This document shows, one piece after another, positions 2,327 to 20,682 of a stretch of 64,000 nucleotides of DNA; within the stretch, counting starts at the first letter, position 1, and each line of letters begins with the position of its first letter. Location of the stretch: assembly GCA_030295235.1 (NCBI GenBank), contig AP026132.1, positions 1,240,001 through 1,304,000 on the forward strand, written 5' to 3'. The DNA comes from Fistulifera solaris (Eukaryota). The position numbers and the translations under genes are program-made. The notes below the pieces were generated by a model. The model saw nothing but the letters and a program-made list of their open reading frames with translations. It was not told the DNA's origin and did not search any database.

Positions 2327-2881
2327 ATGATCAAGTTCCACCTCCTTATTAGCTTATTGTTCTCGGCTCCTCTCGTTGTTAATGGAAAGAACTTTTGGAA
2401 GACAAAACAAGAATCATTACCCGCACTTGTGGATGCCCCCGAGATGGTTGTCTATTATCTCAACAAAAAAGCTGTGTCCACAGCTTGTACCGAAACAGAG
2501 CTCTTGCACATTGACAACAAGATGCTTCCCGACATCGACAACTCTCTCACGGCAAATAACTTCGAAGCACCCGATTGGAAGATCGCCACCAACGACGCTC
2601 GACGCATTTTGTCGGCGGATAGAAGTCCCTCGAGTAACCCCAACTGCGACATTTGCAGAACGCGCTTCTCGCGTAGTCTTTGCAGTGTGATGTACAACTG
2701 CAAACTGCGTCGTCAGCTACGGAGCAAGCAAGAGAGAAACCTGCAAAACTTTTCTGGCCTGGCTTCGGACCTTATCAATAAATGCCAGAACAACATTGAC
2801 GAACTTTCGGATAGCGCAGAGCTTAGCGTTTCCTGCCAAAAAGCTATCAAGCATGCCAACTGTTACGTGGAATTCGTGTAA
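2327..2881 (+). CDS. Secreted RRxL/8-Cys precursor family, member 1 (184 aa)
   Basis: Hydrophobic signal peptide, APEMVVYY motif, RRIL, CDICx8Cx5C, RRQL, RNL and terminal CYVEFV. Aligns by eye with four other ORFs in the window. Confidence 0.9.
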   Translation: MIKFHLLISLLFSAPLVVNGKNFWKTKQESLPALVDAPEMVVYYLNKKAVSTACTETELLHIDNKMLPDIDNSLTANNFEAPDWKIATNDARRILSADRSPSSNPNCDICRTRFSRSLCSVMYNCKLRRQLRSKQERNLQNFSGLASDLINKCQNNIDELSDSAELSVSCQKAIKHANCYVEFV

Positions 2882-3450
2882 AAGTGAATGTGAAGGTGAT
2901 AAGAGGGGGTCGAACGCAGAAAGATACTCCGACTAACCAATCGATGGAGCGATAATGCGCACCGTTTATAATTCATTTCTCAGCATGCTTTTAGTTGTGA
3001 ACAACCCCTTTTGAAATCTATTTTGTATAGTTGCTTGACCGTTCTGAATAAGAATTCTGGCCACCGGCATGGTCAATTCATTTAGTGGTACTAATGATTT
3101 TGTAGGCTCACTGGTTGTGGTGGTCCAAGGTGATTCATACAAGCCAAAGTCCGTAAGCTACGTGCCACATCTCCCTCTTCAATCTAGCCGACTTAAGTAA
3201 CTAATGTTTCCGAGATCTACTCACGACTTAGCTCCCACTCACGATCCACGATTTCTCTACGTATGGTGAGGAGCCAAAAGCAAGGTGATAGATAAATCAT
3301 TATCGACGAAGGTTCAAGGTTCAACTTCATTGCTCAGTCGCTCAGGGAGACACGGGAACGCACCTCTGCTTGGTACATTTTTCTACGGGGGCCTACGTGA
3401 GTGTACACTTTTTCCCGAACCTTCCAGGGAGACGTGACCAATGCATGCGC

Positions 3451-3859
3451 CAAGAGGAAATTAATGGGGACCGCGCTTTGTCAGTCACGAGGACGGGCTA
3501 CTGTCCCCGCTCGTTGATGCCATCCGTTGCTTTTCACGCACAAACAAATATTCCGAAAGTAAGACACTTAAACACGTAACTTTTTTATTTATATTAATAG
3601 GAAGGGAATTATTTTTTCAAGTAGCTTACTTTCGATTTGCAATGTTCTTTTATTCAATGACAAAGATCGATCGATGCTCCGCGATGAAACGCACTGAAAA
3701 TAAGAGCGGACCTCGTGGTCGGAGGCTGGCTTACACAAAAGGTGAGAGTGGCCTCCCGAGCGGCACTCATGATAGCGGGGACACTAAGCCGTCACGAGGA
3801 AAAAGCACGGGCGCATCGCGTGATAATGAAGTAGCGCGGTCCCCATTAATTTCCTCTTG
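3451..3859. mobile_element. Non-autonomous DNA transposon (MITE, 409 bp) with 27-bp TIR and 7-bp TSD
   Basis: CAAGAGGAAATTAATGGGGACCGCGCT at 3451-3477 with its perfect reverse complement at 3833-3859. CATGCGC lies directly on both flanks (3444-3450, 3860-3866). Confidence 0.9.
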
Positions 3860-4612
3860 CATGCGCAATCCCGTTTTTAGGCCTAGAGTACGACCTTAGA
3901 CTCTGGAGTAGACCCAAGTCTCTGCTTCGTCTCCCATATTCGAGCTTTTAACTGCAATAAGAGTAATCTTAAAATCTTTCCACTTTTTCTCGTGCTGCGG
4001 TTTGTTTGCCTTTCATTTTTTCATAACTTTCTTTTGCATGTTCCATCGATCCCATAGTTCGATGAGCAGGAAGCAGTAAGGCTTTGATCTTTTATTATCT
4101 TTCATCTTGTCGATGGTTGTTGAATGATGCTTGAATGATGATTGACGATTGACGACTTCTTGACTTTTACTTCTTACTACGTACTTGCTGCTTGCTGACT
4201 GCTGACTCTAGGACCAAGATGCCCAAGAACAAAGATCACGCCAGACTTAGTGCATTATCATTATTCCTGAGTGACTTCAATTTTGGTTCTCATTTCTCCA
4301 CTTAACTGTAGTGTCAATTGTAGTAACTGAATAGGAAAATGTCTTTTCCGAAAGTTTTCTATAGCCCTTGCAAGTAGAGATGAAGTCATAGCTTACAGCA
4401 ATAATTAAAACGTTCGAGTTCCCTACTCTTCCTTAAGTTCATCAATCTTGCATCTCGCATTCGTGATCATGACCATTCTAATTTTTGTTGGTTGAAAAGC
4501 GAAAGCTGCTTTTCTGTGCTTGATGTAATTAACCAGTGTCAGAAATGCTAAGATTTCGTTTGCACAAATAATCGCTTGCTGCGCCAAGTTGAATAGAATA
4601 TCAAACGCCAAC

Positions 4613-5164
4613 ATGAAGCTCTTGATAATCAGTCTGCTATCAGCTCTCTCTTTCGTCCTCGGCCAGTTGGATGGAGAATTGTTCGCACCGGCGGAGCCGC
4701 CCGAGATGGTCGTCTACTATGTGAACTGGCAAGCCCCATCCACTGTCTGCAATCAAACCGAACAAGCGTACATTGACAAGAAGATGCTACCCGACTTGGA
4801 CATGACTCTGGTGCAAAACAACTTTGAGACGCCCGCTTGGGAAGTGCCCTCCGCCGCCACACGACGTGAACTTCAAAATGGCAACGCCAATCCAAACAGT
4901 AACGGCAAAGCCAACAAATGCGACATCTGTCGAGAGCAATACTCTCGCAGTCTTTGCAACGTAATGTACAACTGCAAAAACCGTCGTGAGCTACATGGGG
5001 CTGAAAAAGAGAAGCGTGAGCTGCAAACTCTCGAAGAACTTCAAGCAGAACTTCTTAGTGCTTGCCGGGGCACTATCATGGATCTTTTGTACAGCCGACA
5101 AATCGGTCGCAACTGCAAGAGAGCACTTCGATGGGCCCGATGCTACGTCCAGGTTATGGAGTAA
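4613..5164 (+). CDS. Secreted RRxL/8-Cys precursor family, member 2
   Basis: ATG at 4613 (MKLLIISLL...), PPEMVVYY, RREL, CDICx8Cx5C, RREL, REL and terminal CYVQVME. Confidence 0.9.
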   Translation: MKLLIISLLSALSFVLGQLDGELFAPAEPPEMVVYYVNWQAPSTVCNQTEQAYIDKKMLPDLDMTLVQNNFETPAWEVPSAATRRELQNGNANPNSNGKANKCDICREQYSRSLCNVMYNCKNRRELHGAEKEKRELQTLEELQAELLSACRGTIMDLLYSRQIGRNCKRALRWARCYVQVME

Positions 5165-5971
5165 TGGAGTCCAATAAATTGAAATGGACTCAAGGCTTAT
5201 CTAATTTCTCGCGATCGCCTTCATCTTCGGTGAGAGGCCCCGTTAATAATTATGTATATGAATGAGTTAGATCTCCATATTGATCATTGATGTGACCTGT
5301 TGGCTTCTTGGCCGGTTTGTGATTTTTAAGTAGTTATGAATCCTTCTTCAAATTCGTAGAGGTCCGAGATGTAGCTTCTCTAAGGTCTTATGCTGTTATT
5401 TCCTCCGTGCTCTCTCCTCCTCGCATTTGCTGCCCTTTCAACTTTCAATCTCCTCCAAAAACACAATTAATGCTGCGCAATACGATGGTGTTGATTGTTC
5501 CTATGATTAGGGGTACCAATACCGCTTTTAGTCACGAGAAGAAATTTCGCTACTGTAGTGCAAGAAGTACCTTCGAAAACTCCCTCCAACCGCACGCAAG
5601 AACCGCTTCTTTATTATTGAGAAGCATACCAGTAAACGATGGCCAATCACTTAACAACCTAAAACGACAAGAAGATGCTTATCACTGGTATTCATAAGAA
5701 ATAGATTAGAGGTCGAATGTTGAAACGATTGGCTCGAAGACGCAACAGCGACAATTTACAAGCGACAGGCTCTCGTCTTCAAGGAGCCTGTCAGACATGT
5801 TCTGGATGCCGACGACCGCTTTGCAATTTGTGTGTTTATTGTCGCGGCTTAGTTCTAACAACAAGCCATCAACGAAAATGCCTCTTTCGACTGTGTCTCC
5901 ATTTTTCATATACCGAAAAGACGAAACGGAGACTTGCATTTGCCGCGCAACGATCATTTCAATCTTTATCA

Positions 5972-7883
5972 ATGGGCGAACGTGCTTCGGATGATACAAG
6001 TACCAGTAATCATCATTACAATTCGCCGCAAGCAAAACATTTTTGCGACAATGTCAAAATATTTTACTCAGAACACACAAAATCCCCGTGGAGTGCAGGA
6101 AATGGCAGTTTGATTCATCCTGGCGTGTTTGGGTTCACAAGAGACAACAATGGGGGATCGCCCTTCGTGTCTCATCGGATCCGCCGCGCTACGATATTCG
6201 ATTGCTGGATCCGTCGCCAAGACCTTCCAACTGCAGCATCAGCATTAACAGCAACTATTCAATCCCCCATCCTCCACAAAGGGCGAATGCTACTTCGAGT
6301 AGTACGAAGAACGCCTCAATGCTCACGAATGTGCCTGCCTATGTGAGTAACTCTTTTTTGCAATAAGAGAAGTTCACTCAAGAACCTTCGCTTCTAACAA
6401 TTATTGCGTTTCATGGTTCTTCCTTTGATAGATGTTCGAACTCGATTGTCATATCCGCTACCTCGAACGAAAGAAAAATCGATCGTCCGCTGTAAGAATC
6501 TCTCCCCAAATCAGTCAACCCTTTCTTCACGCTTGGCGAAGGTCTTCGGGAGATATTATTCAAATCAAAGGTACATGGATGGGTGATCATCGCGAGGAAA
6601 CGCAACAATATAAGGTCAAAGTAGACCAAGCGATGATTCAACCGATTGGATTGAATAACGACAAACTAGAAGAAAGACAAGAGACGATAGAATCGTTTCC
6701 ACTAAATTCGTTTTGGGTGACGTTCGATGATTTACAAGCGGGGTACTATTGTGCAAAGTCATCAGAGTCGTCGGTGCCCATTACTGATACTAACGACAAC
6801 CCACCGTTCTTCATTCAATACAAAGTTCCCCACATGCAGTTCACCATGCAACAGGAACCGCTCTTACCGCGAGTGTCGTTTGTTTACAATGATCGATTCC
6901 ACATCCAACTGCAAGTACTTCCTTCGAGACAAGCACCTCATGCGGGGTATGGATTGTTCGCTTGCGTGAATGCAGTTGACGACAACGATGACAGCAACGC
7001 ACCAAAAGCGTCGACTGTGGAAATACCAACGGGAGTATTGATTGATTTGGGTGTTTATGGTCCTCTGCGCCCCGAAGATCGAAAACCGTGGTCGGCAAGG
7101 CTACTCAAAAGTTACATTTATAGCTATCACTGTGGCTCATGGTTCTTTGAGACTTCCAAGGAGGATGATGCTGTTTTCGATATGACGGATGACGGTACCG
7201 GACAATTGCACGAGTTAGCCCGACGAAATGTTCTGATGTACGCCAACGAAACGTCGGGAGCCGAGCAAGATATTCAGTCGTTGTGGCCGATTTATGACCC
7301 TGAAGGTGCCGTGCACTTCTATTTGGGCCACCCGGATCCAGCCCAAGGACCGTTGCTATTACCCATCGGATGTCCTGTGGAGCTGCTGGTGGATTATGGA
7401 CCGCAATATGAACAAGAACGCGTGCGTAAAAATTACCCCCGTGTGACGGGAAACCACCTTCAGCACATTCAAGAATGCTTGGCGGAAGAAGATCAAGCCA
7501 TTCTACAGGATTTACAAGAATTGTCCTCGGAGGAAATGGAAGCTGACGCTATCCCCTTTTTAAAAAATCTCGTTCAAGAGTGGGAAGTTATCGCTAGCGT
7601 CAGCGGACAAGCTTGCAAGTCGCAGCTACTGGAACGAGCACTGATCGTGACCATGATTCTTATAGATAATCATCGCGGGAAAAACGTTTCGTCGGAAAGC
7701 AATCTTAATACCTTACGTACAATCCTGTCGAATCTATGTTCATGGTTTACTTCTGATCAGCAAATGAAAAGTCACATGACATCGAATGTTGCGTATCATG
7801 AATTGCTTCGACGTATTTTGGGCGATTACGATTGGAATAGCGTTCCGGCACTCTTGTTTCGACGGGCCGTTGTGGCGCTGTAA
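5972..7883 (+). CDS. Hypothetical protein with a divergent SET-domain-like region; probable intron 6343-6431 and probable frameshift at G5 (~6152-6156)
   Basis: 483-aa ORF 6432-7883 contains AGYGLFA, DLGVYGP, YANE and ELLVDYGPQY, resembling the SET motifs GxGLFA, NH and ELxxDYG. A GTGAGT donor at 6343 joins TAG/ATG at 6432 in phase 0. The 5' exon structure is tentative. Confidence 0.55.
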
Positions 7884-7916
7884 ATCGACAAGTTGATAAC
7901 AACAACTTCACTTTAG

Positions 7917-9566
7917 TTACAACGTTTTTTCCTTGATTATGTTTGAACTACTGCTGTAGCGTTCAGACGGAAGCATCGATACTAATCGAAACACCGTCCA
8001 AAGATAGGCAACTCCTATCAAGGCACAACCAATCACACTCCACAAGACGGGAAACAAATCCGGCCAGTGGCCTGGTGGCACAACCCAACATTCCATTACG
8101 TGCAATAATAACATCAGCATATACGCCATTCGGCAAAACCAAACTGCCATTTGCGATGCTTTTCTTGTCGAACTTGGATCGAACTCAACCCAGAGTTGCA
8201 AAACGCTTACAAAGATGATGCCACTAGCTACGTAGGCCGTTTGCAACCGATCTATTACGAGCAACGGCCACAAAGTCCACATGGAAACAAACGAAAAGTA
8301 TTCTGCCAATACCGGCGCTTCACTCCACAAGAGTGAAACGGGTGCGGTGGCTAATAGCAGGCTCTTTTCGTGAACCTGAAAACTGGCCAGAAAGAATGCT
8401 AAGGCGCACGCACTAGTGGCCCACAACAAGACGCGCTCTTGCTCTTGCTGCGACTGAGTCGACGATGCAATGGTCCTCCCAATTGGATATCGTTGTCCGA
8501 GACGAAAACCTTGTATGCAGGCGGGTGACATCAGTAATGCAGTGAGCCCCAGAGAAGCACGGAATTGATTTGCCGCCGATAACCGTTGCCGTATGCGAAA
8601 AGGTTGAATCGACAAAGCACACCATACATTGGCAACTTTGCCTTCAAACAATCCCCGTTGCACCGGAAATATCCGAATCAGTATTTGTTTCAGCTCTTTC
8701 CACGGCTCAGATGGGTTGTTTGAAAACACAATCGGTCCCCAGAGTAGCGCGAACGTCAAGAGCACTGTTACTCCGAGTAGCAGAAAAGATCGAAGGATGG
8801 TCCTACGATGAGCGTAACACCGCCCCAACAAATAACAACCCACGACCGGTGCATAATACAATGTCATTTGTTTAAAGGAGAGTGCCATGCAGAAAGCAAT
8901 AGCACCCAGTAGAACTTCTTGTGTTGGCGGTTGTGTGATCCAGTAAAAAGACCATAACGACAACCCAATGGCAGTTGTATTGTATTGAAAGTGCCCATGA
9001 TCGATCAACACCAATGCCGGTTGCAGGAGAGCAAAGACGTACGAAAAAAGGTTGATCTCTTGTGATTGTTGTTGATATCGTCGTCGACGACACCAAGCAT
9101 AGATAGCTGTAAAGTAAAGCAACACATCCAAGGCTAGGACGGTCGCTCTCATAAACGGCTTGTGTCGAATCTCCTCTTCATATCCCCGTGACGTAAACAA
9201 AGCCACCGTTTCCGGTCCTACGAGAATATGAGAAAGATACCCGCATACATACGACACATACGCCGTCAAAGGCGGATAATCCAGTCCCCAATACTCCAAA
9301 TCGTAGTGATACCATTTTTGCAACGGCAAATGATACGTCAACTCCATCCAATGTCGTTGCGCTTCATAGTCTCCTCCGTACGCTTGTCTCGCACCGTGAT
9401 GATTGTTTTGTCCGGAATGCGGTTGAAATCCGATCAGGACGCGATAGAATATAAGAAGTAAAGTCAGAGTGATTGTTGTGAGGCTGATTGACGAGAACGC
9501 ATTGCTATTTTGTTGTTGCTGCGACGCAAAAGAGTTCTTCGGTTCTGCTACACGATTTCTCTCCAT
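7917..9566 (-). CDS. ALG6: Dolichyl-P-Glc:Man9GlcNAc2-PP-Dol alpha-1,3-glucosyltransferase
   Basis: GDYEAQRHWMELT, YWGLDYPPLTAY, IDHGHFQYN, FKQMTLYY, FPVQRGLFEGKVAN and FQVHEKS motifs; many TM segments. Confidence 0.95.
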   Translation of the reverse strand: MERNRVAEPKNSFASQQQQNSNAFSSISLTTITLTLLLIFYRVLIGFQPHSGQNNHHGARQAYGGDYEAQRHWMELTYHLPLQKWYHYDLEYWGLDYPPLTAYVSYVCGYLSHILVGPETVALFTSRGYEEEIRHKPFMRATVLALDVLLYFTAIYAWCRRRRYQQQSQEINLFSYVFALLQPALVLIDHGHFQYNTTAIGLSLWSFYWITQPPTQEVLLGAIAFCMALSFKQMTLYYAPVVGCYLLGRCYAHRRTILRSFLLLGVTVLLTFALLWGPIVFSNNPSEPWKELKQILIRIFPVQRGLFEGKVANVWCALSIQPFRIRQRLSAANQFRASLGLTALLMSPACIQGFRLGQRYPIGRTIASSTQSQQEQERVLLWATSACALAFFLASFQVHEKSLLLATAPVSLLWSEAPVLAEYFSFVSMWTLWPLLVIDRLQTAYVASGIIFVSVLQLWVEFDPSSTRKASQMAVWFCRMAYMLMLLLHVMECWVVPPGHWPDLFPVLWSVIGCALIGVAYLWTVFRLVSMLPSERYSSSSNIIKEKTL

Positions 9567-10254
9567 TCTAAGTCAAAGCTGCATTGAAAGTGCTAACACA
9601 GAAACTTCAAAACAAAATTGTATGATCAATTCGATTACAAATGGGTTGCCACGGTAATAGTATTATGTAATGCAATAAAAGGAAGCCGATCAAAGTGCGC
9701 GCACTCTATAATTGTTCAAATGGCAGGCGCATTCACGTACCCAGCAAATCAGGCTACGTATTTTCGCGTAACTCTCGTAAGGAATTTATTCATCGACAGA
9801 GGGAAACCCGGATATTGCGCAATTTCGATCACACCAAGTTTTCGCATCTTTTCGACGCCAATGTCAACTATACGTTGCCCCACATCGCCAATGCATTGCC
9901 GAAAAACATACGAATGCTATTTGAAGCAAGAGTTAACTGTTTTCTTTTAATCAAAATTGGAAAGTTAACAGGGGTTGGGCAGCAATTCGGTGCGATCAAC
10001 GAAACAAGTCATGACTGAAATCCAGTCCTGGCGAAATACGGAACACACTTTGTGCCATAGTCTAGTAGAGGTCGATGGCGCACGTTGAAGTTGTGAAGAG
10101 AGCAAAAACGTCACGGAGATTTTCCCCTGCACCTTTTCTCTTGCAGCCGACGATGGCCGACGATAATGAAGGTAAAGTTTGCAAGGAAAGGAAAAGGTAT
10201 AATAAGCACAAAAGACCCAAATTCAAGCGCTATACTTCTACACCTTCGTGAAGG

Positions 10255-11955
10255 ATGCACTGCTCTACTGCTATACGTATATTCGCAACAATCGTTCTTC
10301 TTCCGAGAGCAACTTTATCGTTTGCACCTCAAACAATCGGTCGTTTGACACCGACGACGCTTTCTCCATCCTTTATTTCGATTACACAAACAACGACGCG
10401 TCTCCGAGATGCTAGTAGCAATACAGTGGAGATTCCTACCGAATGGCAAGGCGTCGTTTTATCGAAATTAAAACAAATTCAAGATCCAGATTTGAATGTC
10501 GATATTGTGACGGCTGGATTTTGTCAAAATTTGCAATATGATCCTGCAAATGCCAAATTATCCATGGATCTAGAATTAACGACACCGGCGTGTCCTGTCA
10601 AAGATCAATTTCAAAGAGATTGTGAGCAGTTGTTACTCGAATTACCGTGGATTCAACAAGTCGAAGTGACTCTGACAGCACAAGCACAAGGTACTTCCTC
10701 GACGTCCTTGGCTGGTTTAGCGCAAGTCGGTGCCATTGTAGCCGTTTCTTCGTGCAAAGGAGGTGTCGGAAAATCAACAACAGCCGTCAATTTGGCCTTT
10801 TCTTTGCAACAACTGGGAGCGACAGTAGGAATATTGGATACCGACTTGTACGGACCCAGTTTACCCACCATGGTGACGCCCGATGATGATATTGTGCGAT
10901 TCGTGGGTCGCCAAATTGCACCATTACAACGCAATGGCGTACGATTGTTGAGTTTTGGACATATTCATGATCAAGCGGCCGTCATGCGAGGTGCCATGGT
11001 CACGCAACTGCTCGAACAGTTCCTCGATGTGTGTCAGTGGGGCAAGCTCGATTATCTCATTTTGGACATGCCTCCGGGAACGGGAGATATTCCCTTAACG
11101 CTAACACAGAAACTCAATTTGACAGCAGCTGTTATTGTCACCACACCGACGGAACTCAGCTTTCAAGATGTCAAGAAAGGAATTGAAATGTTCGATACCG
11201 TCCAAGTACCGTGCATTGCCGTCGTGGAAAATATGGCGCATTACGAACTACCGGAATCGATGAAAGAAACCGTCGCAAAAGCGGTAAAACAATCGTCTCA
11301 TGTAACAAACGCGGAACAAGTCACACAAGAAGTATGGAAGGCATTGCAAAATACACCATTGCCTATCTTTGGAGCCGGACACCGATCGACGTTGCAACAA
11401 ATGTACGGTATTGAACAACATTTCAAAGTACCGCTCATGGATCAAGTGGCGTATGAAGGAGATCACGGGACACCATTTGTGTTGCAACAACCCGATTCCT
11501 CCGCCGCGCGCGTGTATCGATCATTGGCACAAGCGGTGGTCCAAGAAGTCGCCAAGGTCAAATACACACACCCGAATCAGCGTTTGTTTCTAGAATACAA
11601 TCGAGACGAGCATGTTGTGGCATTGAAACAAGGGACCAGCCCACAAGATGAAGAGATCAGTACATTGTCTCCAGCGACCATTCGTCGTGCCTGCCGTTGT
11701 GCGGCATGTGTCGAAGAATTGACGGGCCGACAAATTTTGTTGCCGAGCATGGTGTCGGAGAATATTGCACCGCTTCGTATGCAATCGGTAGGAAACTATG
11801 CTTGGAGTATCGATTGGAGTGATGGACATCGCTCTTTATATCCTGAAAAGAGTCTAAGGGCTTTGGCATCGCAAAAGCCAAAATCTACCACAAAAGACTC
11901 GTCGTCGACGACACTGGCATCGGTGGTTCGAGAACGCGTCCAAGAACCTGTTTAG
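10255..11955 (+). CDS. HCF101: Plastid Fe-S scaffold HCF101 (DUF59 + Mrp/NBP35 P-loop NTPase + C-terminal DUF971-like domain)
   Basis: Signal peptide ending TLS-FAP (ASAFAP-like), DPDL..ELTTPACP, SSCKGGVGKSTTAVNLA, DMPPGTGD, and a C-terminal CRCAAC..VGNYA..IDWSDGH domain. Confidence 0.92.
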   Translation: MHCSTAIRIFATIVLLPRATLSFAPQTIGRLTPTTLSPSFISITQTTTRLRDASSNTVEIPTEWQGVVLSKLKQIQDPDLNVDIVTAGFCQNLQYDPANAKLSMDLELTTPACPVKDQFQRDCEQLLLELPWIQQVEVTLTAQAQGTSSTSLAGLAQVGAIVAVSSCKGGVGKSTTAVNLAFSLQQLGATVGILDTDLYGPSLPTMVTPDDDIVRFVGRQIAPLQRNGVRLLSFGHIHDQAAVMRGAMVTQLLEQFLDVCQWGKLDYLILDMPPGTGDIPLTLTQKLNLTAAVIVTTPTELSFQDVKKGIEMFDTVQVPCIAVVENMAHYELPESMKETVAKAVKQSSHVTNAEQVTQEVWKALQNTPLPIFGAGHRSTLQQMYGIEQHFKVPLMDQVAYEGDHGTPFVLQQPDSSAARVYRSLAQAVVQEVAKVKYTHPNQRLFLEYNRDEHVVALKQGTSPQDEEISTLSPATIRRACRCAACVEELTGRQILLPSMVSENIAPLRMQSVGNYAWSIDWSDGHRSLYPEKSLRALASQKPKSTTKDSSSTTLASVVRERVQEPV

Positions 11956-12055
11956 AACGATAAAACACATCATCTTATCAAATAAATCATGCAATCTGCA
12001 CCTTTCTAAAGTTTATGGTATTCTTCTCTATTGAAATGTAAAATTGAGAGCCTGG

Positions 12056-13582
12056 TTATTCTGCGACGTTCGCACAAGCCCGCTCCAAAAAGGAAATGAT
12101 CCGATGTCCTGCTTCTTCTAATACGGCTGTGGGTGCCCCAAACACGATACGGAAAAAGTTATCCGACGCTTTCATTCCAAAGCAAGATCCAGGTAACACG
12201 AGCACATTTTCTTGCTGCAACAATTCTCGCGTCCATTCGGCATCGCTTTTCACGGAAGTTGGGTGAGGCGGAGGCACGATTTGAACCATGAGATACATGG
12301 CACCCTGCGGACGATATACCTTCAAGTACGGCGATTGTCGCAGCACTTGTTCGACGGCGTGTGCCTGTTGTCGCAATTTCTGGCGCCACTCCTCTTTCCA
12401 AGTACCAATCGTCGTTTCATCGGGACCCGTGGGCGCGAGCGCAGCGGGAATCGCCCATTGCACGACATGACTGGCACCCATGATCACTTGCGCCAATTGC
12501 TGTGCTCCGTGTCGAATGGATAGCAATGTGCCATAAATGCTGTTTAATGTTAAAATGGACAAATGAGATAGACATACCACAGTAATTTCGTAAGTTTTCA
12601 TCAAACGACTTACTTGTCATGAAACACGAGCCAACCGACACGCCATCCAGGAACCAAATACTGCTTTCCCAACCCCGAAGCTTGGACGATTGGCACATGC
12701 GGCGACGGAATCATTTCATTGCGAACACTCGCCAAGCTATGAAAGACACAGTCGTCGTGCAATGTCATATCTCCATAAATTTCATCCGAAATGACCATGA
12801 GATGATATTTGTCACACAATTTCAAGAAGTCTTGCAAATGGGTCTTGGAAAAAACGGCCCCGGTCGGATTTGAGGGATTGTTGATGAGAATGGCTTTGAA
12901 GGAACAGTTGTGGGTCTGTTGCAACAAAGTTTCTAGTTCGACGAGATCCATGTGCCATTCTTCCGTCTCAGTGTTGTAAACGAGAGGATACATTTGCGTT
13001 TGACATCCCAAAGATTGACAAATCACATTATAAAGCGGAAATCCTGGTGACGGAATCAACAATACATCGTGAGGAGATTGCAACGTCGCCCGGAATAAGA
13101 GTTCTAACGCTCCCGAACATCCGTTGGTAACAATGACGTGATTGGATGTTACATTTAAAGAAGGATTGTCGCGATTGCAGTGTTCGGCGATGGCTTGACG
13201 GGCTGACAACGTTCCGACGGCGGGGACGTAGCCAGCCGATTGCAAGAGATGTTTCTGAACGGCTTGTACTACCACTGGACATGGAGGAAAGTAAGAGGAC
13301 GGATCACCCAGCTGAAGACGTTGACGATTAGGATTTCAATGATAGGAAATAAAGTGATCGAAAAGTTTCTTTTCTCTCGTTACTTACTGCAAGTGAAATG
13401 TGTGATTTGTCATGTTCTTGCACGGACGCAAGAAAAGGATCGACAATAGCACGTATAGGATTATACGTTCTTTGCGCTTCCATTGAAGCAGGGATTACCG
13501 GCCAGTTGAGTGACAAGAGTGTGACTTTGGAAGCAGCATTGTTTCCTTCTTCTACAACAACAACGGAAGTGGGAGAAGCCAT
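12056..13582 (-). CDS. PLP-dependent class I aminotransferase (tyrosine/nicotianamine aminotransferase-like); introns 13312-13387 and 12540-12613
   Basis: Spliced product reads NPIRAIVD..ISLA|LGDP..NNPSNPTG..SDEIY..SGLGKQYLVPGWRVGW..PQGAMY..VLVLPGSCFG. Both GT-AG introns restore the frame. Confidence 0.9.
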
Positions 13583-14263
13583 TTCGTTTCCTTTTTTCTA
13601 GAAAAGAAAGCAAGAGTAGCAAAATAAAATAATAATGTTATGATGTCGAGCGTTTACCAGGTATGCGAACACATAAACGTAAACGATAAAGAGATCCCTT
13701 TCAACTAAATTAATTGATTTCTCCCCAAAAGAACAAATGCAGATGGGCGTCTCCTTTCCGAATTCCTTTCACATCAAAAGGAGAAGAATTCTCAATCCAT
13801 TCACGAATGTCGTTATGCCGTGACTGACGAAAGATTCAATAAAGATTCATGACTGAACACTCACGACTCACGATGTTCTTGATAAATAAAAACCACGATG
13901 AACGATGAAACTCGCCTCCGCCGTTTTAGACACGACGAGCGTCATCGTTTGCACGCATCTCGTCCGCACCATGGTCATTAAAGGAACACATAACATCAAG
14001 TTAATGAACAAACCATACAAGCATTTAAATGCAACAATGTGCTCCATGTTACTGCTATCCTGTTTTCTTTTTTTTTTTAAAAGGCGGAGGGCGATCGAGT
14101 TTGAAAAATACAAAAGAAAAGATCAAATGACACATAATGAAACTATCATTATTATGAAATGTTATCGTTCTTCATGTGAAGAGAAACTGTGTGGAGAAAT
14201 ATTCTAAGCGCTGATTACAGCATGACGCCGTTCGAATAGCCGGAAAGTGTGGACCTTGAGTCT

Positions 14264-14743
14264 TTAAACGAAGTCCACATAACAGGTCGAACTTGAAAGG
14301 GCCGTTCGGCAATTGAGGCTGAGGTTGGTGTCAGCAGAAAGGGCGGCAATTTCCTCCTCGCATTCCTCAAGAAGCTCCGAGCCCAAGTCATCGTCCTCGC
14401 TTTCCTCCAGTTTACGAAGTTGACGACGAACCCGGCAGTTGAACATGGCCCGACAGAGAGACGCTGAGTGATAACGGCGGCAGTAGTCACAGTTTGATGT
14501 TGAAAGCTTGCGGCGGTCATCGTCATCAGACACTTCCCATACCGGAGCTTCGTAACCGTTTGCGAGAAGAACGTCGTCGAGGTCCGGAATCATCGCATTT
14601 GAAATGTAGGTCAGTTCTGTGGCGCTACAGACGTCGTCGGCAGCTTGTTCATTGAGGAAGTAGACGACCACCTCGGGGGCCTCTGCCAATTGTGCAGCGA
14701 CGGAAGCGAAAATCGAAAGCAAAGTGATGAGAAGGAACTTCAT
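14264..14743 (-). CDS. Secreted RRxL/8-Cys precursor family, member 3 (159 aa, acidic flanks)
   Basis: Signal peptide, APEVVVYF, RRKL, CDYCx8Cx5C, RRQLRKL and terminal CYVDFV. Confidence 0.9.
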   Translation of the reverse strand: MKFLLITLLSIFASVAAQLAEAPEVVVYFLNEQAADDVCSATELTYISNAMIPDLDDVLLANGYEAPVWEVSDDDDRRKLSTSNCDYCRRYHSASLCRAMFNCRVRRQLRKLEESEDDDLGSELLEECEEEIAALSADTNLSLNCRTALSSSTCYVDFV

Positions 14744-15154
14744 GGTAGACTGTGTAAGAGAGATATCGGTATCGAATGTTGTTTTGATGGCAAATGAATT
14801 TTATGAGATAATGAAGCTGCCAAGCTTGGAAACATTGACAAGTCGTCCAAAATGCGGTGGCAGAAATTTTGAAATGTGGGTTCGTCCAAGAATGACGACT
14901 CCCACCAATCATTAAATAACTATATAACAATCAAGACTTCCTAGCTTATAGACGAGTACCGGACGTAAAGAATAGAAAATTGACGTCGTTCGAAGAACTC
15001 TTAGCATCCGTTTTCTTTGCATCAAATATTATTGCCTCTCTAACAAGTAGGCCTTTTCGACAGAAAAATCTAGGCTCTATGGAATCTGCCGAACCTTATT
15101 GGCCCGGAAGATAAGCTTACAAGACAGAGAGGGTGACGTGGACGGTGGACGGCA

Positions 15155-15189
15155 GGTGAGAGGTGAGTGGTGAGTGGTGAGTGGTGAGT
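15155..15189 (+). repeat. Short heptamer microsatellite (GGTGAGT)n, about 5 units
   Basis: ggtgagaggtgagtggtgagtggtgagtggtgagt read directly. Confidence 0.7.
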
Positions 15190-15450
15190 CAGGATTACGA
15201 ATTCGAACCGGATCCGCACGTACAAAAATGAAAGGACAAACGACAAAGACAAAAAACAAAACAAGTCTAAATTTTTAGACAATACTACGGAGTAGACCCG
15301 ACATCAGAGATTTGTAAAGGGTACCAGTAAAGGGAGGCTGGCATAAATGCAAGCAGGCCGACGAACGTTCAAAGTTCAAAGTTCAAATAATATGAGACAA
15401 GCACGACTCACTTTCACACGACCGACAACTATAGTTCGACGGCCTCTAGA

Positions 15451-15705
15451 ATACCGCAATACCGTACGGTATAATACCAGTATAATACCGGTATTCGGGT
15501 ATTCGGATTTTCGATACCGGTATTTGAAGTTAGTTCAAACAAGACTGGGGCACGTACGACTGGATTCCCGTGATTCCGCGGCAGTTAACGTGAAGATGCG
15601 AGAGCTTTCCCGTCAAGGCGCTGAAACCCAATACGGTATCGATACCGTACGATACCGTACAATACCGTATTCCGGTATCGAAAATCCTGATACCGGTATT
15701 TGAAG
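15451..15705. repeat. ATACCG-rich element with inverted arms (possible MITE remnant)
   Basis: Many ATACCG/CGGTAT copies in two blocks. GGATTTTCGATACCGG (15505-15520) is inverted at 15672-15687, and GATACCGGTATTTGAAG is repeated directly at the end of each block. Confidence 0.6.
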
Positions 15706-16326
15706 AACTATACCGACAACCCGCAACTGCAACCACAACCACAACCACGCAACCACGACAGGGCTGACTATTGACATCTGACGAAAACGGAAACATTGAA
15801 TTTTGAATTCGACTCTTCGATCTGTTTTCGACTTTGGACTTGTCAAGATTGTAGACTGTAGACATGCCGATGTCCGCCTCGCCGTACATTAATTTGTTGA
15901 GAAATGAAGAAAAGCGTAAAGCCTGAAGCCCCAAGTTCCAAGCAGACCTAGCTAGGCTACAGGTAGTAACCGGCAATCGGCACTCGGCACGCAACAGCAA
16001 TCGACAGTCAGCCCCCTCTAGCTTCTCTCTAGAGTTTCCCTCTCAAGAGAATCGGCAGTCGCGCTTGCGTCACAAAATAACCCTAAGGTGACTACGGAGT
16101 AATGAACTTAGGGGTATTTTTTTCTTGCTAGGCACTAAGCGCCATCCTAATTTAGATGATAAGTAATGGAGAGTTTAATGAAAGATGGCAAATAAATAAT
16201 GAATAACCAAGAGATTATTATGGTATGAACATGTCATTGTGTCTCGCGCGAATACGATCTTTACGCTATAATTGAGAATTCCGAACCAGACTCCACGTGA
16301 CCGCCAGCTATCTGATTTTTCGGCAA

Positions 16327-16923
16327 CTAGACCAACTCCACATGACAGACAGAGGCTTGAAGGGCGGCTTTGCAACTACGGCTGAGAAATCTGTTGTAGG
16401 AAAGACTTACAATGCTTTGCTGGCATTCGGCCAAAAGGTCAGCAGCAAGATCATTCAGTTTTCTTTCGTCAGCTTGACCATCACGAAGTTGGCGACGAAA
16501 GCCACAGTTAAACATTCCATTGCAGTAGCTGCGTGGGTAGTAACGTCTGCAGAAATCACAATTGGAAGAGCTCGTTGTGGTGGAAGCAGTGGCTGCGCTG
16601 AACGAGTCGATCTTGCCAGAGACGAGGACACCGTCGGTGCCGTCGGTATCGATGAGCTGGCGCCGTGTCGCGGCCCCCGTAGTCTGCCACTGGGGAATTG
16701 CGTAGTTGTTTTCTAGCAGTGTCATGTCAATGTCGGGCATCATTTTACTGTCGAGGTATAGAAGTTCTTGTTCGGTACATGCCGTCGGCGAGGCTTTTTC
16801 ATTGACGTAGAAGACAGCCATACCAGGAGCCTCCTTTGGCGTGAATGCCGAAGCATCCAACGTCATGAGTTGTCCATTGACAGCAGTGAGAGTAAAAATT
16901 AAGGTGATGAGGAGAAACTTCAT
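16327..16923 (-). CDS. Secreted RRxL/8-Cys precursor family, member 4
   Basis: True start is probably MKFLLITL at 16923, not the ORF start at 17286. APGMAVFY, RRQL, a Ser/Thr-rich extension, CDFCx8Cx5C, RRQL, RKL and terminal CHVELV. Confidence 0.9.
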   Translation of the reverse strand: MKFLLITLIFTLTAVNGQLMTLDASAFTPKEAPGMAVFYVNEKASPTACTEQELLYLDSKMMPDIDMTLLENNYAIPQWQTTGAATRRQLIDTDGTDGVLVSGKIDSFSAATASTTTSSSNCDFCRRYYPRSYCNGMFNCGFRRQLRDGQADERKLNDLAADLLAECQQSIVSLSYNRFLSRSCKAALQASVCHVELV

Positions 16924-17305
16924 GGTGGTATGAGTTATGTTACCTGCAGGGGTTTGGTTTTGTGAAGGGCGAAAGAAACTGGTTGATGAAAAGATGAAAC
17001 AACAAACAACGACCAACAATAACGCCGTCTGGCACGGATCAAGGCTCAAGATTAAACTTGTTAGAAAAAGTAGGGAAGGCATAAGCGGTACCTGAATCTG
17101 ACTATTGCCCTTTAAAAACCCAAGGGGAAATACTATGTAAATATTGTACAAACTCTGTGACAGAACGGAGAATTTGGGGCTCGGGATTCGGGATGAATGA
17201 TTGATGATTACCTGGTACCAGTACTGGTAGGCAATTTTTCTCGTTCTCTCTCCTCTCTCCCCGATCAATTCAAAGTTCAAAGCCAAAAGCCTATCTGGTA
17301 CTGTA

Positions 17306-17603
17306 CAGCTGGGATTCGATCGTCATTACATAATGTACACCTCGTAGAAAATGTACCAGAGAGTTTACGAAAAATTTTTCCGTATAACTTTACGTACAAA
17401 TTTCCCAAAACATATTTTGTAGCTCTCAAAATTCTGAATCTATCTATAAATTTATCTTTTTCATTCGAAGTTTTCATGAAAGATAGAAATGAACATGAAA
17501 ATGGGAAATTTATACGTAAAGTTATACAGTAAAATTTTTCGTAAAGTCTCTGGTACATTTTCTACGAGGTGTACGTGGTGTAATGACGATCGAATCCCAG
17601 CTG
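17306..17603. mobile_element. Tc1/mariner-type MITE (298 bp) with ~101-bp TIRs and TA target duplication
   Basis: TA|CAGCTGGGATTCGATCGTCATTAC...GTAATGACGATCGAATCCCAGCTG|TA. Arms 17306-17406 and 17503-17603 are near-perfect inverted repeats. Confidence 0.88.
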
Positions 17604-18942
17604 TACTGTATCTGTACGTGCTAAGGAAAAAGTATGCTTTACGGTACCGGTACCGGTACCGGTACAATTACCTTGTACAATCTTTAAAGCTTGTTCTCAT
17701 TGATAACTGATACGCCCCTCGGTCATTGTTGTCACAAACTGAACAGCTGTAACGACGAGAGACAAGAGACAAGAGACAAAAAGAAAGTGACTCGGGACTG
17801 ACGATCGGATGATTCAGAAGTCAGAAGTGATGAGTCCTGATCCTGGTCCGGATCCAGTTGCGACGACGAGGAAAAAGATCACAATGACGATGAATAAAAG
17901 TAAATACCAGGTACCAGGTAAATAAATAAATACTCCGTACCTATTCAAGCCAACGATTGTTTCACAATATGCTTCGTTGCTTCCTAGTCATAGTGAATTG
18001 CGATAAGTGCTGCTATTTGAATTTCTTCGGCAGATGAAGAAATATTTGGTTGCAGATTTCGACGAAAAATTACAATATACAAAAATGGATTGTGCAGGCT
18101 CCACTCAGTGTGATAAAAGGTTGGCGGGAAACTCGTTGATTAAGTCACATCCTGACACAGTTTCTTGGATACCGGCTTCTCGATTTCTCGTCATGGTGGC
18201 CCCGATAAAGGAGCCACCGGTAGAGACACCGTTGTGTTCGGTCTGTCAACTCTATCAAGGCCAGAAAATTTCTTACCGTCGATGCATAATGCTCTCGTAC
18301 AGTATACAAAATGGCAACATTGAAATAATACGTCATTTCGAGGCGAAGTTATAGTCGAGCGGTTCAACTTGAGGTCGAAATATGGACAGGACAATGGTTT
18401 CAAGGTTGTTCAACTCGTATTTGTTGCAGTATGCAGCATGCAGCATGCAGAATGCTGCTTCGGTTTTTTCAGTCAATTAACAAATTGCTTGCTTGCACAT
18501 TCGATGTATGTAGCCTCATTTGAATAAGATACGGCCCAATCGCCTCGCGCGCTGCGTAGGGATTCTGACCTAATTATTTCTTAAAATAAAATAAAAATTC
18601 AGTGACGCCGTCAAGTGCCCCTAAATATTGCGTACCATGAGCCAATTCATCAGATCGTTAGCTCTTTTGGTAATTGTTTTTCCTTGGACCGAAAGAATTA
18701 TAAAACTAGCTTCTACGAAGCCAAATTTTCCTAACGAATAAGATAGAATCACTTGAGAAGAAATTGTCCCCAGCGCATTCTAGGACAGTCGACAAGGTTT
18801 AGCTTTTACCTAAATTCTTCTACAACACAAAAGATTTTGACAAAGTAATGTCTATGAAATAAGTTTATGATCACGTAATTTAGTCTCCTATCTGAATGTA
18901 TTCACAATGCTAAACGGCAGCAACCTTTTTCTTGAACGCCAT

Positions 18943-19431
18943 CTATACGAATTCAACGTGGCAAGTAGAACCTGCAAGGGCTGCTTTGCAAGTTGCGGTG
19001 AGGAATCGGTTTCTTGACGAGATCAAAGCAACATTGTCTTGACACATTTGCAGCATCTCGGCGCCGAGCTCGGTAGTGTCTAACTTGCGCGTAGCGTCTT
19101 TCTGACGAAGCTGACGACGGAAGCCGCAGTTAAACATTATGTTGCAGTAGGAGCGGCCATATTGTTGACGGCAAGTATCGCAGGTATTGTTCAACTTGCG
19201 TCGGGTGGCGTCAGTCGCCGTGAACTCCCATTCAGCCGGATCGAAGTTGTTCGAGATGAGAGCCATGTCGAGGTCGGGCACCATTTTGCTGTCGATGTAG
19301 GTGAACTCCTCAGGGGTGCAATCAGTGTCGAGGGCGTTCGCGTTCACATAGTAGACTTTCACTTCAGGGGCAGCAAGCTGTGCAGAGACAGATGCGGCAG
19401 TGGCGAGCAAAGCAATGATAACGGACTTCAT
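18943..19431 (-). CDS. Secreted RRxL/8-Cys precursor family, member 5 (162 aa)
   Basis: Signal peptide, APEVKVYY, RRKL, CDTCx8Cx5C, RRQL, RKL and terminal CHVEFV. Confidence 0.9.
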   Translation of the reverse strand: MKSVIIALLATAASVSAQLAAPEVKVYYVNANALDTDCTPEEFTYIDSKMVPDLDMALISNNFDPAEWEFTATDATRRKLNNTCDTCRQQYGRSYCNIMFNCGFRRQLRQKDATRKLDTTELGAEMLQMCQDNVALISSRNRFLTATCKAALAGSTCHVEFV

Positions 19432-20682
19432 GGTATTTGTGTTGTGTATGATGATCGTTTGACGTTATCAAGTTGTTGCTAATTTTGATTTTTATGAGCT
19501 TCTTCACAATCGAAATCGAAATTGCTTGAGGGGTCGGAGTCAAAGTTTACTTGACCGGCGGAGGGAGAAAATGATGAATGACTGGCATTCCGTACTAAAA
19601 CAGACAATTTTAAGATTAAAGATTTCTTACAAGGGAATGACGTTCTTCTAAGTAACTGGACAACATCAACCACGAGGATCCTCTGTTCTGTACTAAATCC
19701 TATGCCGAAGGCACTCAAAGCCGTATCTTGTGGATCTTGTTGGTTAACAATCTTATTACTGAGCCGAAGCATTTTCAAGGAATTGGTGTTCGCCTTTCAG
19801 TTCGCCGCTCCATTCTTTTCGATTTTCTCATTAAAGTGCGCATCTGGCAAAACGTCAATACAGCAGAAACAGGCAAGAATGCACTTAACGACGATTAAAG
19901 AAACGCCGTTATAAAGTGACTTTCGCTCGCATTCGTACTTCTCACTGAACGACGAAAGAGCGCAGGGCAAACCCATCGCATTGCGCGATTGCGTGGGTGA
20001 ATTTCAGATTTTACCAGTGAATCTTTTCACGTTTATTACTCTCAAGCATCGCGATCGAAGTCGAAGGTCGAACGTCAAACAGCACTTTTACTTTTATCGC
20101 TTCTCGTCCACGCGTTTCCATAGTGACAGTGACAGAACTCGTGGCTGCACGTGTCATGTGTAAAGGAAAAGGAAACATCATGATGTGGCATGCAAAGATC
20201 TTTGGTGGCATGTGCCCCTTCGCCCTTCATGGGTTCATTGTTCATTGTTTGTGAACTACGGAGTATCAGCTCTTCGATCTTCCGTGCATTTGAAATTTGG
20301 GCGCTCAAGTCCTCTTCTTGCCTTTTGAGCCGCGCCAAGAGCCAACATCTAAGATAAGCGCAATAACCTTAGATTACTAACTCAACTGAAGATGCCATAA
20401 TGCCATAATGTATCATCGAGAATCAAGACTTAACACTCATGACTAAAATATTTTGATTACTTCTTACCTTTAACCTTACAGATTGGATACTGTGACGCAA
20501 TCTGTAGGTGACATCACACGTCACGTCACGTGTTGTTCCGGTTCGCGTCAAAGAATTCTTGCACCGTCGCTGATCCTTTTTGTTCTTTGACAGCATCACC
20601 ATTCTCGCAATCAAGGTCATTGGTCGTCAAGTCTTCTCATCTATCTTTATAATTCACTTTAAGTATTAATTGAGTGAAAGCC

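Follow-up and report, generated by a model that had tools for sequence, protein, structure and literature searches.

In diatoms, processing at RXL motifs is known almost only from silica-forming proteins. According to passages of one report, the repeats of silaffins lose a C-terminal RRIL or RRNL, and the proposal is made there that a specific endopeptidase recognises RXL and has frustulins, cingulins and silacidins as further substrates (PMC4557024); excerpts of a second report call the RXL endopeptidase of diatoms 'yet unknown' (PMC5525289). An earlier note on the DNA treated here had pointed to this system and also to the plant RALF peptides; R-x-L processing is published for the silaffins of diatoms and RRXL/S1P processing for RALF, as stated in excerpts of the sources (PMC4557024, PMC5525289, PMC5258720). 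Here we describe a family of five genes in a eukaryotic window of 64,000 nucleotides (nt; ~45% G+C) from the diatom Fistulifera solaris (contig AP026132.1 of assembly GCA_030295235.1, positions 1,240,001 to 1,304,000, forward strand), whose products carry a four-Cys module bracketed by three RxL sites in 5/5 cases. We favour, at about an even chance, the reading that they are secreted pro-proteins cut at RxL, a cleavage that would free a cationic hairpin peptide from an acidic carrier.

The five open reading frames (ORFs) of the family look intronless and lie at the following positions of the window, given with their lengths in amino acids (aa) and with the E values of a family profile hidden Markov model (HMM):

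2327..2881, + strand: gene 1 coding sequence, 184 aa, HMM E 3.9e-72
4613..5164, + strand: gene 2 coding sequence, 183 aa, HMM E 8.2e-75
14264..14743, - strand: gene 3 coding sequence, 159 aa, HMM E 2.5e-66
16327..16923, - strand: gene 4 coding sequence, 198 aa from the ATG at 16923, HMM E 6.1e-76
18943..19431, - strand: gene 5 coding sequence, 162 aa, HMM E 2e-70

Run against the six-frame translation of the 64-kb window, the HMM recovers five copies, exactly these genes, and every family ORF aligns over its full length with homologues of other sources. The proteins of genes 2-5 are 42-47% identical to that of gene 1 in a five-protein alignment, which contains 41 invariant columns. ORFs, alignment and motifs thus bear out, in all five proteins, the one shared layout that the earlier note had described. 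Gene 4 has an in-frame ATG further upstream at 17082, and the interval 16924-17082 (- strand) would add 53 hydrophobic or Cys-containing residues. Since this extension is absent from all homologues and the HMM match begins at the MKF start, the upstream ATG is probably unused, and 16924-17082 is probably 5' untranslated region (UTR) of gene 4.

All five proteins begin with a signal-peptide-like N-terminus, formed by M-K, an 11-residue hydrophobic core (Kyte-Doolittle mean 2.3-2.7) and, ahead of a Q or K, small residues. The call was made by eye and from hydrophobicity, which is a heuristic, and it agrees in the five proteins with the signal peptide proposed before. Eight Cys (C54, C107, C110, C119, C125, C153, C170 and C179 in gene-1 numbering) are invariant among the five, as had been claimed. 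Four of them belong to the module C-D-x-C-R-x5-S-[LY]-C-x2-M-[YF]-N-C, present in 5/5:

2645..2701, + strand: gene 1 four-Cys module, aa 107-125, CDICRTRFSRSLCSVMYNC
4919..4975, + strand: gene 2 four-Cys module, aa 103-121
14435..14491, - strand: gene 3 four-Cys module, aa 85-103
16504..16560, - strand: gene 4 four-Cys module, aa 122-140
19126..19182, - strand: gene 5 four-Cys module, aa 84-102, with a predicted helix-turn-helix (helices 83-90 and 93-100)

The module is the best-conserved segment, with a mean pairwise identity of 0.62 in the five proteins and 0.45 in a wider set of 48 sequences, while among the five the mean identity is 0.51 in the N half and 0.38 in the C half. The predicted middle pieces carry a charge of +1 to +5 and the N pieces of -2 to -12; an anionic carrier joined to a cationic Cys-rich peptide would follow a familiar pattern.

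The RxL sites around the module are listed below, together with the stretches of low predicted local distance difference test (pLDDT) found at some of them in the AlphaFold2 models discussed later:

2600..2611, + strand: gene 1 site 1, RRIL, aa 92-95; pLDDT <50 over aa 92-106
2708..2719, + strand: gene 1 site 2, RRQL, aa 128-131
2735..2743, + strand: gene 1 site 3, RNL, aa 137-139
4862..4873, + strand: gene 2 site 1, RREL, aa 84-87
4982..4993, + strand: gene 2 site 2, RREL, aa 124-127
5015..5023, + strand: gene 2 site 3, REL, aa 135-137
14504..14515, - strand: gene 3 site 1, RRKL, aa 77-80
14417..14428, - strand: gene 3 site 2, RRQL, aa 106-109
14408..14416, - strand: gene 3 site 3, RKL, aa 110-112, abutting site 2
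16654..16665, - strand: gene 4 site 1, RRQL, aa 87-90, followed by a 31-aa Ser/Thr-rich linker
16486..16497, - strand: gene 4 site 2, RRQL, aa 143-146
16456..16464, - strand: gene 4 site 3, RKL, aa 154-156
19192..19203, - strand: gene 5 site 1, RRKL, aa 77-80, within a stretch of pLDDT <50 (77-81)
19108..19119, - strand: gene 5 site 2, RRQL, aa 105-108, next to a stretch of pLDDT <50 (109-112)
19081..19089, - strand: gene 5 site 3, RKL, aa 115-117, three residues ahead of helix 120-140

Both R92-R93-x-L95 (site 1) and R128-R129-x-L131 (site 2), again in gene-1 numbering, are invariant in the five proteins, and site 3 follows 0-7 aa past site 2.

Searched with a family profile, 5.8 billion proteins yielded 25 matches, all at E <= 5e-53, and an HMM search of 1.84 billion cluster representatives gave 36 clusters at E <= 0.001, 17 of them at E <= 1e-10; the family is small. 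Its only named relatives are hypothetical proteins of Fistulifera solaris. In agreement with the earlier note, which recognised no named family, the HMM, Pfam and PDB sequence searches gave no characterised match: Pfam returned for the five proteins, at E up to 10, nothing but a chance-level PHD_pln (E 7.7), and the PDB searched by sequence only chance-level matches, the best being an HNF4 zinc finger at E 0.32. The best feature scores in the ESM Atlas (0.75-0.77) are within its noise range. In the literature on F. solaris saposin, F. solaris locus tags and diatom RXL proteins, endoproteases, cysteine-rich peptides or pheromones, none of the listed titles and beginnings of abstracts describes the family, and supplementary tables of transcriptome or proteome papers on F. 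solaris may list the genes. One 1431-aa repeat protein with 14 short matching stretches (P0041) was rejected as a low-complexity chance match and kept out of all alignments. The alignment of 48 sequences used below leaves out the fragments P0033, P0037 (identical to the C-terminus of gene 3), P0038, P0040 and P0043, the near-identical P0004, P0009, P0012, P0015, P0018, P0024 and P0027, and a long form, P0051. The latter is a distant member of 357 aa with a C-terminal extension of ~200 residues, Lys/Glu-rich, coiled-coil-like and without Pfam match.

Three of the F. solaris homologues (P0002, P0012 and P0015) bear the automatic UniRef name 'Saposin B-type domain-containing protein', which raises the idea of a lipid-binding protein of the saposin-like (SAPLIP) kind. 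Such a protein would suit the presence of several helices and of paired Cys, among them a CxxC. Against it, neither SapB_1 nor SapB_2 is matched in Pfam by the five proteins at E up to 10, and the three labelled homologues have no Pfam match at E up to 1; the predicted models have beta-strands at both ends, and no saposin stands among the 50 best rows of Foldseek or of the VIA structural aligner for either model. With only an automatic name behind the label, no saposin match in Pfam and strands in the models, we regard a saposin-like protein as very improbable.

The wider set of sequences shows how the RxL sites are kept. Site 2 reads RR-x-L in 28/28 sequences of a smaller alignment, where site 1 also occurs as QRKL, MRKL, PRKL, VRHL, RRRT and SEDG. 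Over the 48 sequences, the R and L of site 1 are at least 90% conserved, at a mean column identity of 21%. The claim that all three basic motifs are invariant therefore holds for the five proteins of the window and fails in the relatives, several of which have lost the first Arg of site 1 or more. The earlier note had also named beforehand a lack of RRxL in homologues as grounds for dropping its proposal; for the R-x-L core, which the homologues keep, this objection does not apply. We cut the 48 sequences at alignment landmarks and counted RxL per 100 aa, which gave 0.34 in the N domain, 5.79 in linker 1 (ahead of the module), 2.15 in the Cys module, 6.59 in linker 2 (behind it) and 0.85 in the C part, compared with 0.54 in four neighbouring proteins of the window. 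At least one RxL occurs in linker 1 of 45/48 and in linker 2 of 46/48 sequences. When the residues of each linker were permuted (2000 shuffles), linker 1 gave a mean of 11.4 RxL (maximum 24) against 63 observed, ~5-fold more, and linker 2 a mean of 28.6 (maximum 46) against 89 observed, ~3-fold more. The pattern is present as well in a subset of sequences less than 40% mutually identical (n=19), with RxL in linker 1 of 19/19 and in linker 2 of 18/19. Taken together, the two linkers hold 152 R.L versus 5 K.L, 1 R.I and 4 R.V. Distant members often have a second RxL, typically [DE]R[ED]L, that abuts the first Cys of the module. Since a strict R-x-L is kept in linkers of otherwise unalignable sequence, RxL behaves like a short linear recognition motif and not like a structural element.

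These counts bear on a different explanation, in which the protein stays uncut as a single-chain secreted or cell-surface protein, the module being a disulfide-braced surface loop, e.g., a binding knob, and RxL serving structure, cargo sorting or ligand contact. A purely structural role does not account for an R-x-L kept so strictly, with K-x-L and R-x-I/V scarcely used, in linkers that are free both in residues and in length (from 0 to ~40 residues between site 1 and the module), nor for a motif duplicated as often as is seen in linker 2, where 39/48 sequences have at least two RxL, nor for the coincidence of RxL with the least confident, loop-like stretches of the gene 5 model. We hold an uncut protein to be possible rather than probable.

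AlphaFold2 gave a mean pLDDT of 66.7 for gene 1 (28 sequences) and of 80.5 for gene 5 (48 sequences), the latter with a predicted template modelling score (pTM) of 0.65. In the gene 5 model, a strand (24-29), three helices (40-60, 120-140 and 146-153) and a final strand (156-161) have a pLDDT of 90-96, and the module appears as two short helices (83-90 and 93-100) at 72-77; pLDDT drops below 50 in two stretches only, 77-81 at site 1 (RRKLN) and 109-112 directly after site 2. Foldseek found no match in the PDB at E <= 0.001 for either model. The best VIA matches reached Z 6.2 (root-mean-square deviation, rmsd, 3.6, 102 aligned residues) and Z 6.4 (rmsd 4.1, 98 aligned) for the two models; those listed are mostly ferredoxin-like alpha/beta domains, and as common arrangements also reach values of Z below 8 and the predicted strands number only 2-3, the ferredoxin-like name would merely describe the fold. 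The matches run over residues 30-184 of the gene 1 model and 22-162 of the gene 5 model, nearly their whole length, so the supposed pro-region and tail form one domain in which the Cys module is an insert. In the models, then, the N-terminal region and the C-terminal segment make up a single predicted alpha/beta domain, a conserved carrier into which the module is set as a two-helix insert. On this point the earlier note, which had laid out the protein as pro-region, peptide and tail in succession, did not stand. This favours an uncut protein: both ends are placed by AlphaFold2 in one domain with the module as insert, structural matches span that domain, and the halves of the carrier are conserved and hold four invariant Cys. 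A predicted complex of the gene 5 N piece (aa 20-76) with its C piece (aa 113-162) scored 0.02, and this value, obtained without an alignment, is uninformative either way.

Two relatives also speak for an uncut protein. In P0071 (381 aa) and P0077 (378 aa), the family unit with its three RxL sites lies whole and N-terminal to a Pfam Ice_binding domain (PF11999; E 5e-32 and 2e-32, respectively), and the junction to this domain has no RxL. Their arrangement suggests that other secreted proteins, possibly those of ice-associated diatoms, can use the family unit as leader or carrier, and it would fit as well a carrier that is reused as a secretory pro-domain. No fused forms were found between 446 and 2000 aa, which is weak evidence.

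The counts of Cys agree with the module being an insert in one domain. Most of the 48 rows have an even number of them (4, 6 or 8) in the module with its flanks, the exceptions being P0039, P0052, P0058 and P0059, and most have one Cys in the N part and three in the C part, some N counts being inflated by 5' extensions. In P0045 and P0054, C130 and C157 are both missing and C38 and C148 are retained, and by eye P0067 and P0072 look like them. This joint loss suggests the pairs C130-C157 and C38-C148, the second of which would link the N half to the C half.

We found that at least three of the five genes (3, 4 and 5) are transcribed. RNA-derived contigs at >=99% identity cover 14280-14533 in gene 3 (one contig of run X3), 16391-16697 in gene 4 (metatranscriptome run X2) and 18835-19493 in gene 5 (runs X2-X5, four runs of two studies). 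The contig mapping took in genes 3-5; stretches not covered do not mean silence, and contig depth gives no basis for ranking expression. In the parts of genes 3, 4 and 5 that contigs cover no splice joints were reported, in line with the intronless appearance noted before. The gene 5 contig of run X4 stops at 18835 in a loose end of 20 T on the + strand, which we read as the poly(A) tail of a minus-strand mRNA and which delimits one more feature:

18835..18942, - strand: gene 5 3' UTR, ~108 nt, with poly(A) addition at about 18835

Under the reading that we favour, the signal peptide would direct the protein to the endoplasmic reticulum (ER). There, the N-terminal ~50 residues (a strand and a long helix, with one Cys) and the C-terminal ~45 residues (two helices and a strand, with three Cys) would fold into one acidic alpha/beta domain, probably held by a disulfide between the N and C halves and by another one inside the C half. 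Between the halves would stand the cationic two-helix hairpin, with four Cys (6 or 8 in distant relatives) that presumably form their own internal disulfides, flanked by flexible linkers that bear site 1 ahead of it and sites 2 and 3 behind. The diatom 'RXL' endoprotease by which silaffins are matured at RRIL/RRNL might cut these sites in the late secretory pathway, and the products would be a disulfide-bonded peptide of ~25-55 residues and a two-chain carrier. This proposal draws on the strict retention of RxL in unalignable linkers that are predicted to be flexible loops, on the even Cys count and the high conservation of the module, on the putative charge complementarity of peptide and carrier, on the RXL processing reported in diatoms, on the signal-peptide-like N-termini and on transcription.

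Several points weigh against cleavage and release. The N and C halves are conserved and form one domain, so that they are no pro-region to be disposed of, and the protein could function whole. Site 2 lies only 2 residues past the last Cys of the module in the five genes (2-4 in most relatives), and access of a protease to it is perhaps limited; the first Arg of site 1 varies among relatives. In biosilica proteins, as an excerpt of one source has it, RXL usually occurs ~30 residues past the signal peptide, compared with 55-75 residues here (PMC5525289). The signal peptides were judged only by eye and hydrophobicity, and secretion is presumed from them. In the models the confidence of the module is moderate (pLDDT 72-77 for gene 5 and 56-58 for gene 1). 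The proposed disulfide pairing comes from the Cys losses of one clade, probably a single event, and both the cleavage product and the protease are putative. As for the role of a released peptide, the tandem expansion and fast divergence of the family make us lean, weakly, towards extracellular defence or a cell-surface function rather than a hormone.

The closest parallel, that of the diatom RXL precursors (silaffin Sil1p, silacidins, cingulins and frustulins), consists, as far as the excerpted sources describe them, of an ER signal peptide and of RxL, including the RRIL type, at unit boundaries; both groups occur in raphid pennate diatoms. The difference lies in what is bracketed. Their units are low-complexity, Lys/Ser-rich or acidic, heavily modified silica-forming peptides, whereas the unit of the present family is, to judge from sequence and models, a folded disulfide-rich hairpin in a globular carrier domain. 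Lys/Ser-rich or acidic low-complexity units of the silica type were absent from the five proteins when the piece sequences were inspected and K-runs checked, and only gene 4 has a Ser/Thr-rich linker. A role of the family in the frustule (biosilica) or the silica-deposition vesicle, acting in wall formation and not as a freed peptide, would be compatible with cleavage. In this sense, excerpts of two reports describe RXL/RRL after the signal peptide as typical of diatom biosilica-associated proteins (PMC5525289, PMC4557024), and the first one presents Silicanin-1 as likewise Cys-rich (PMC5525289). Still, the five proteins show neither lysine clusters nor Ser/Lys-rich repeats nor acidic phospho-Ser tracts like those of silaffins, silacidins or cingulins, and no transmembrane segment; the fusion to an ice-binding domain in relatives points to a general extracellular context, and the five F. 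solaris locus tags were not found in the literature. We therefore regard a frustule function as unlikely.

With the plant RALF pre-pro-peptides the family shares, as the portion of the source that describes them indicates, a signal peptide, an acidic region, an RRXL dibasic site and a cationic four-Cys peptide (PMC5258720). The same source gives, in the passage on receptor binding, YISY as the motif of the mature peptide that binds the receptor (PMC5258720). None of the five proteins contains YISY, and none matches RALF (PF05498) in Pfam at E up to 10, so that a kinship with RALF, to which the earlier note had alluded, is not borne out. Unlike in RALF, the Cys spacing of the family is C-x2-C-x8-C-x5-C, and the peptide is internal, being followed by further RxL sites and a folded C part. 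The resemblance is convergent, and an RRXL ahead of a four-Cys peptide is insufficient for membership.

Peptides buried in larger folded precursors are found in the sunflower PawS1 albumin, the source of SFTI-1, and in proinsulin with its C-peptide. As in these, an internal segment would be excised here while the flanking chains stay linked; the folds, proteases and organisms differ, and in the present family the part to be excised is the best conserved and Cys-rich one, unlike the insulin C-peptide. The alpha-hairpinin antimicrobial peptides of plants, which form a helix-turn-helix with two disulfides and are cut from larger precursors, resemble the module in the helix-turn-helix predicted for gene 5. 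Their motif C-x3-C ... C-x3-C is absent from the module, whose spacing is the one given above. Also considered was the oomycete RxLR effector class, in which RxLR, often accompanied by dEER, lies no further than about 60 residues from the signal peptide. Site 2 reads RRQLR, and thus contains RxLR, in genes 1, 3, 4 and 5 (e.g., 19105-19119, - strand), and in gene 3 it is followed by an acidic run, EESEDDD. Two things argue against this class, the position of site 2 at residues 105-146 and the loss of its final R among distant relatives.

RXL-bracketed secretory precursors are already known as a kind of system, and disulfide-rich peptides as a kind of product; new are the way in which the two are combined, the insert-in-carrier layout and their presence in diatoms. 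That diatoms might have here their first gene-encoded system of disulfide-rich extracellular peptides, for signalling or defence, with a hairpin matured on and then cut from a two-chain carrier by the RXL protease of silica proteins, is a claim to which we give a fairly small chance. If true, RXL cleavage would serve diatoms as a pro-protein convertase pathway of general use. Release of the hairpin would mean that diatoms possess gene-encoded cysteine-rich peptides, a class with central roles in the signalling and defence of plants and animals; a review of diatom pheromones mentions, in the part of it considered here, only small peptides found by metabolomics (PMC12352721). A small, well-expressed and folded substrate with three strictly conserved sites would also provide a convenient reporter for finding the RXL protease. 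Furthermore, as the family has neither a Pfam model nor a descriptive name, its definition would improve the annotation of diatom genomes and polar metatranscriptomes.

The genes interspersed with the family members encode an ALG6/ALG8 glycosyltransferase, a NUBPL-type Fe-S P-loop NTPase, a class I/II aminotransferase and a biotin carboxylase. Interleaved as they are with these housekeeping genes, the five genes form a dispersed paralogue cluster and not a functional gene cluster. No upstream motif common to all five was found, and one 9-mer is common to three of them. Three of the neighbouring stretches can be described as follows:

6432-7883, + strand: 483-aa ORF between genes 2 and 3, without Pfam match at E <= 0.001
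10255-11955, + strand: NUBPL/HCF101-type Fe-S P-loop NTPase with an N-terminal FeS_assembly_P and a C-terminal GBBH-like_N (DUF971-type) domain
12056-13582, - strand: class I/II aminotransferase in several ORFs, with Pfam profile positions 118-234 and 239-361 in adjacent ORFs

Being split over ORFs, the aminotransferase gene has introns, in contrast to the five family genes. Rfam gave no match in positions 1-22000 of the window. At 15155-15189, in an intergenic stretch, three metatranscriptome contigs of 32-35 nt (X2) align with one mismatch each; their source is probably a shared word, repeated or of low complexity, rather than transcription of this locus. Additionally, the spacer of genes 3 and 4 contains, at 15484-15705, a 31-nt inverted-repeat pair (84% complementary, 145 nt apart) that overlaps a 39-nt direct repeat and may be the remnant of a small mobile element.

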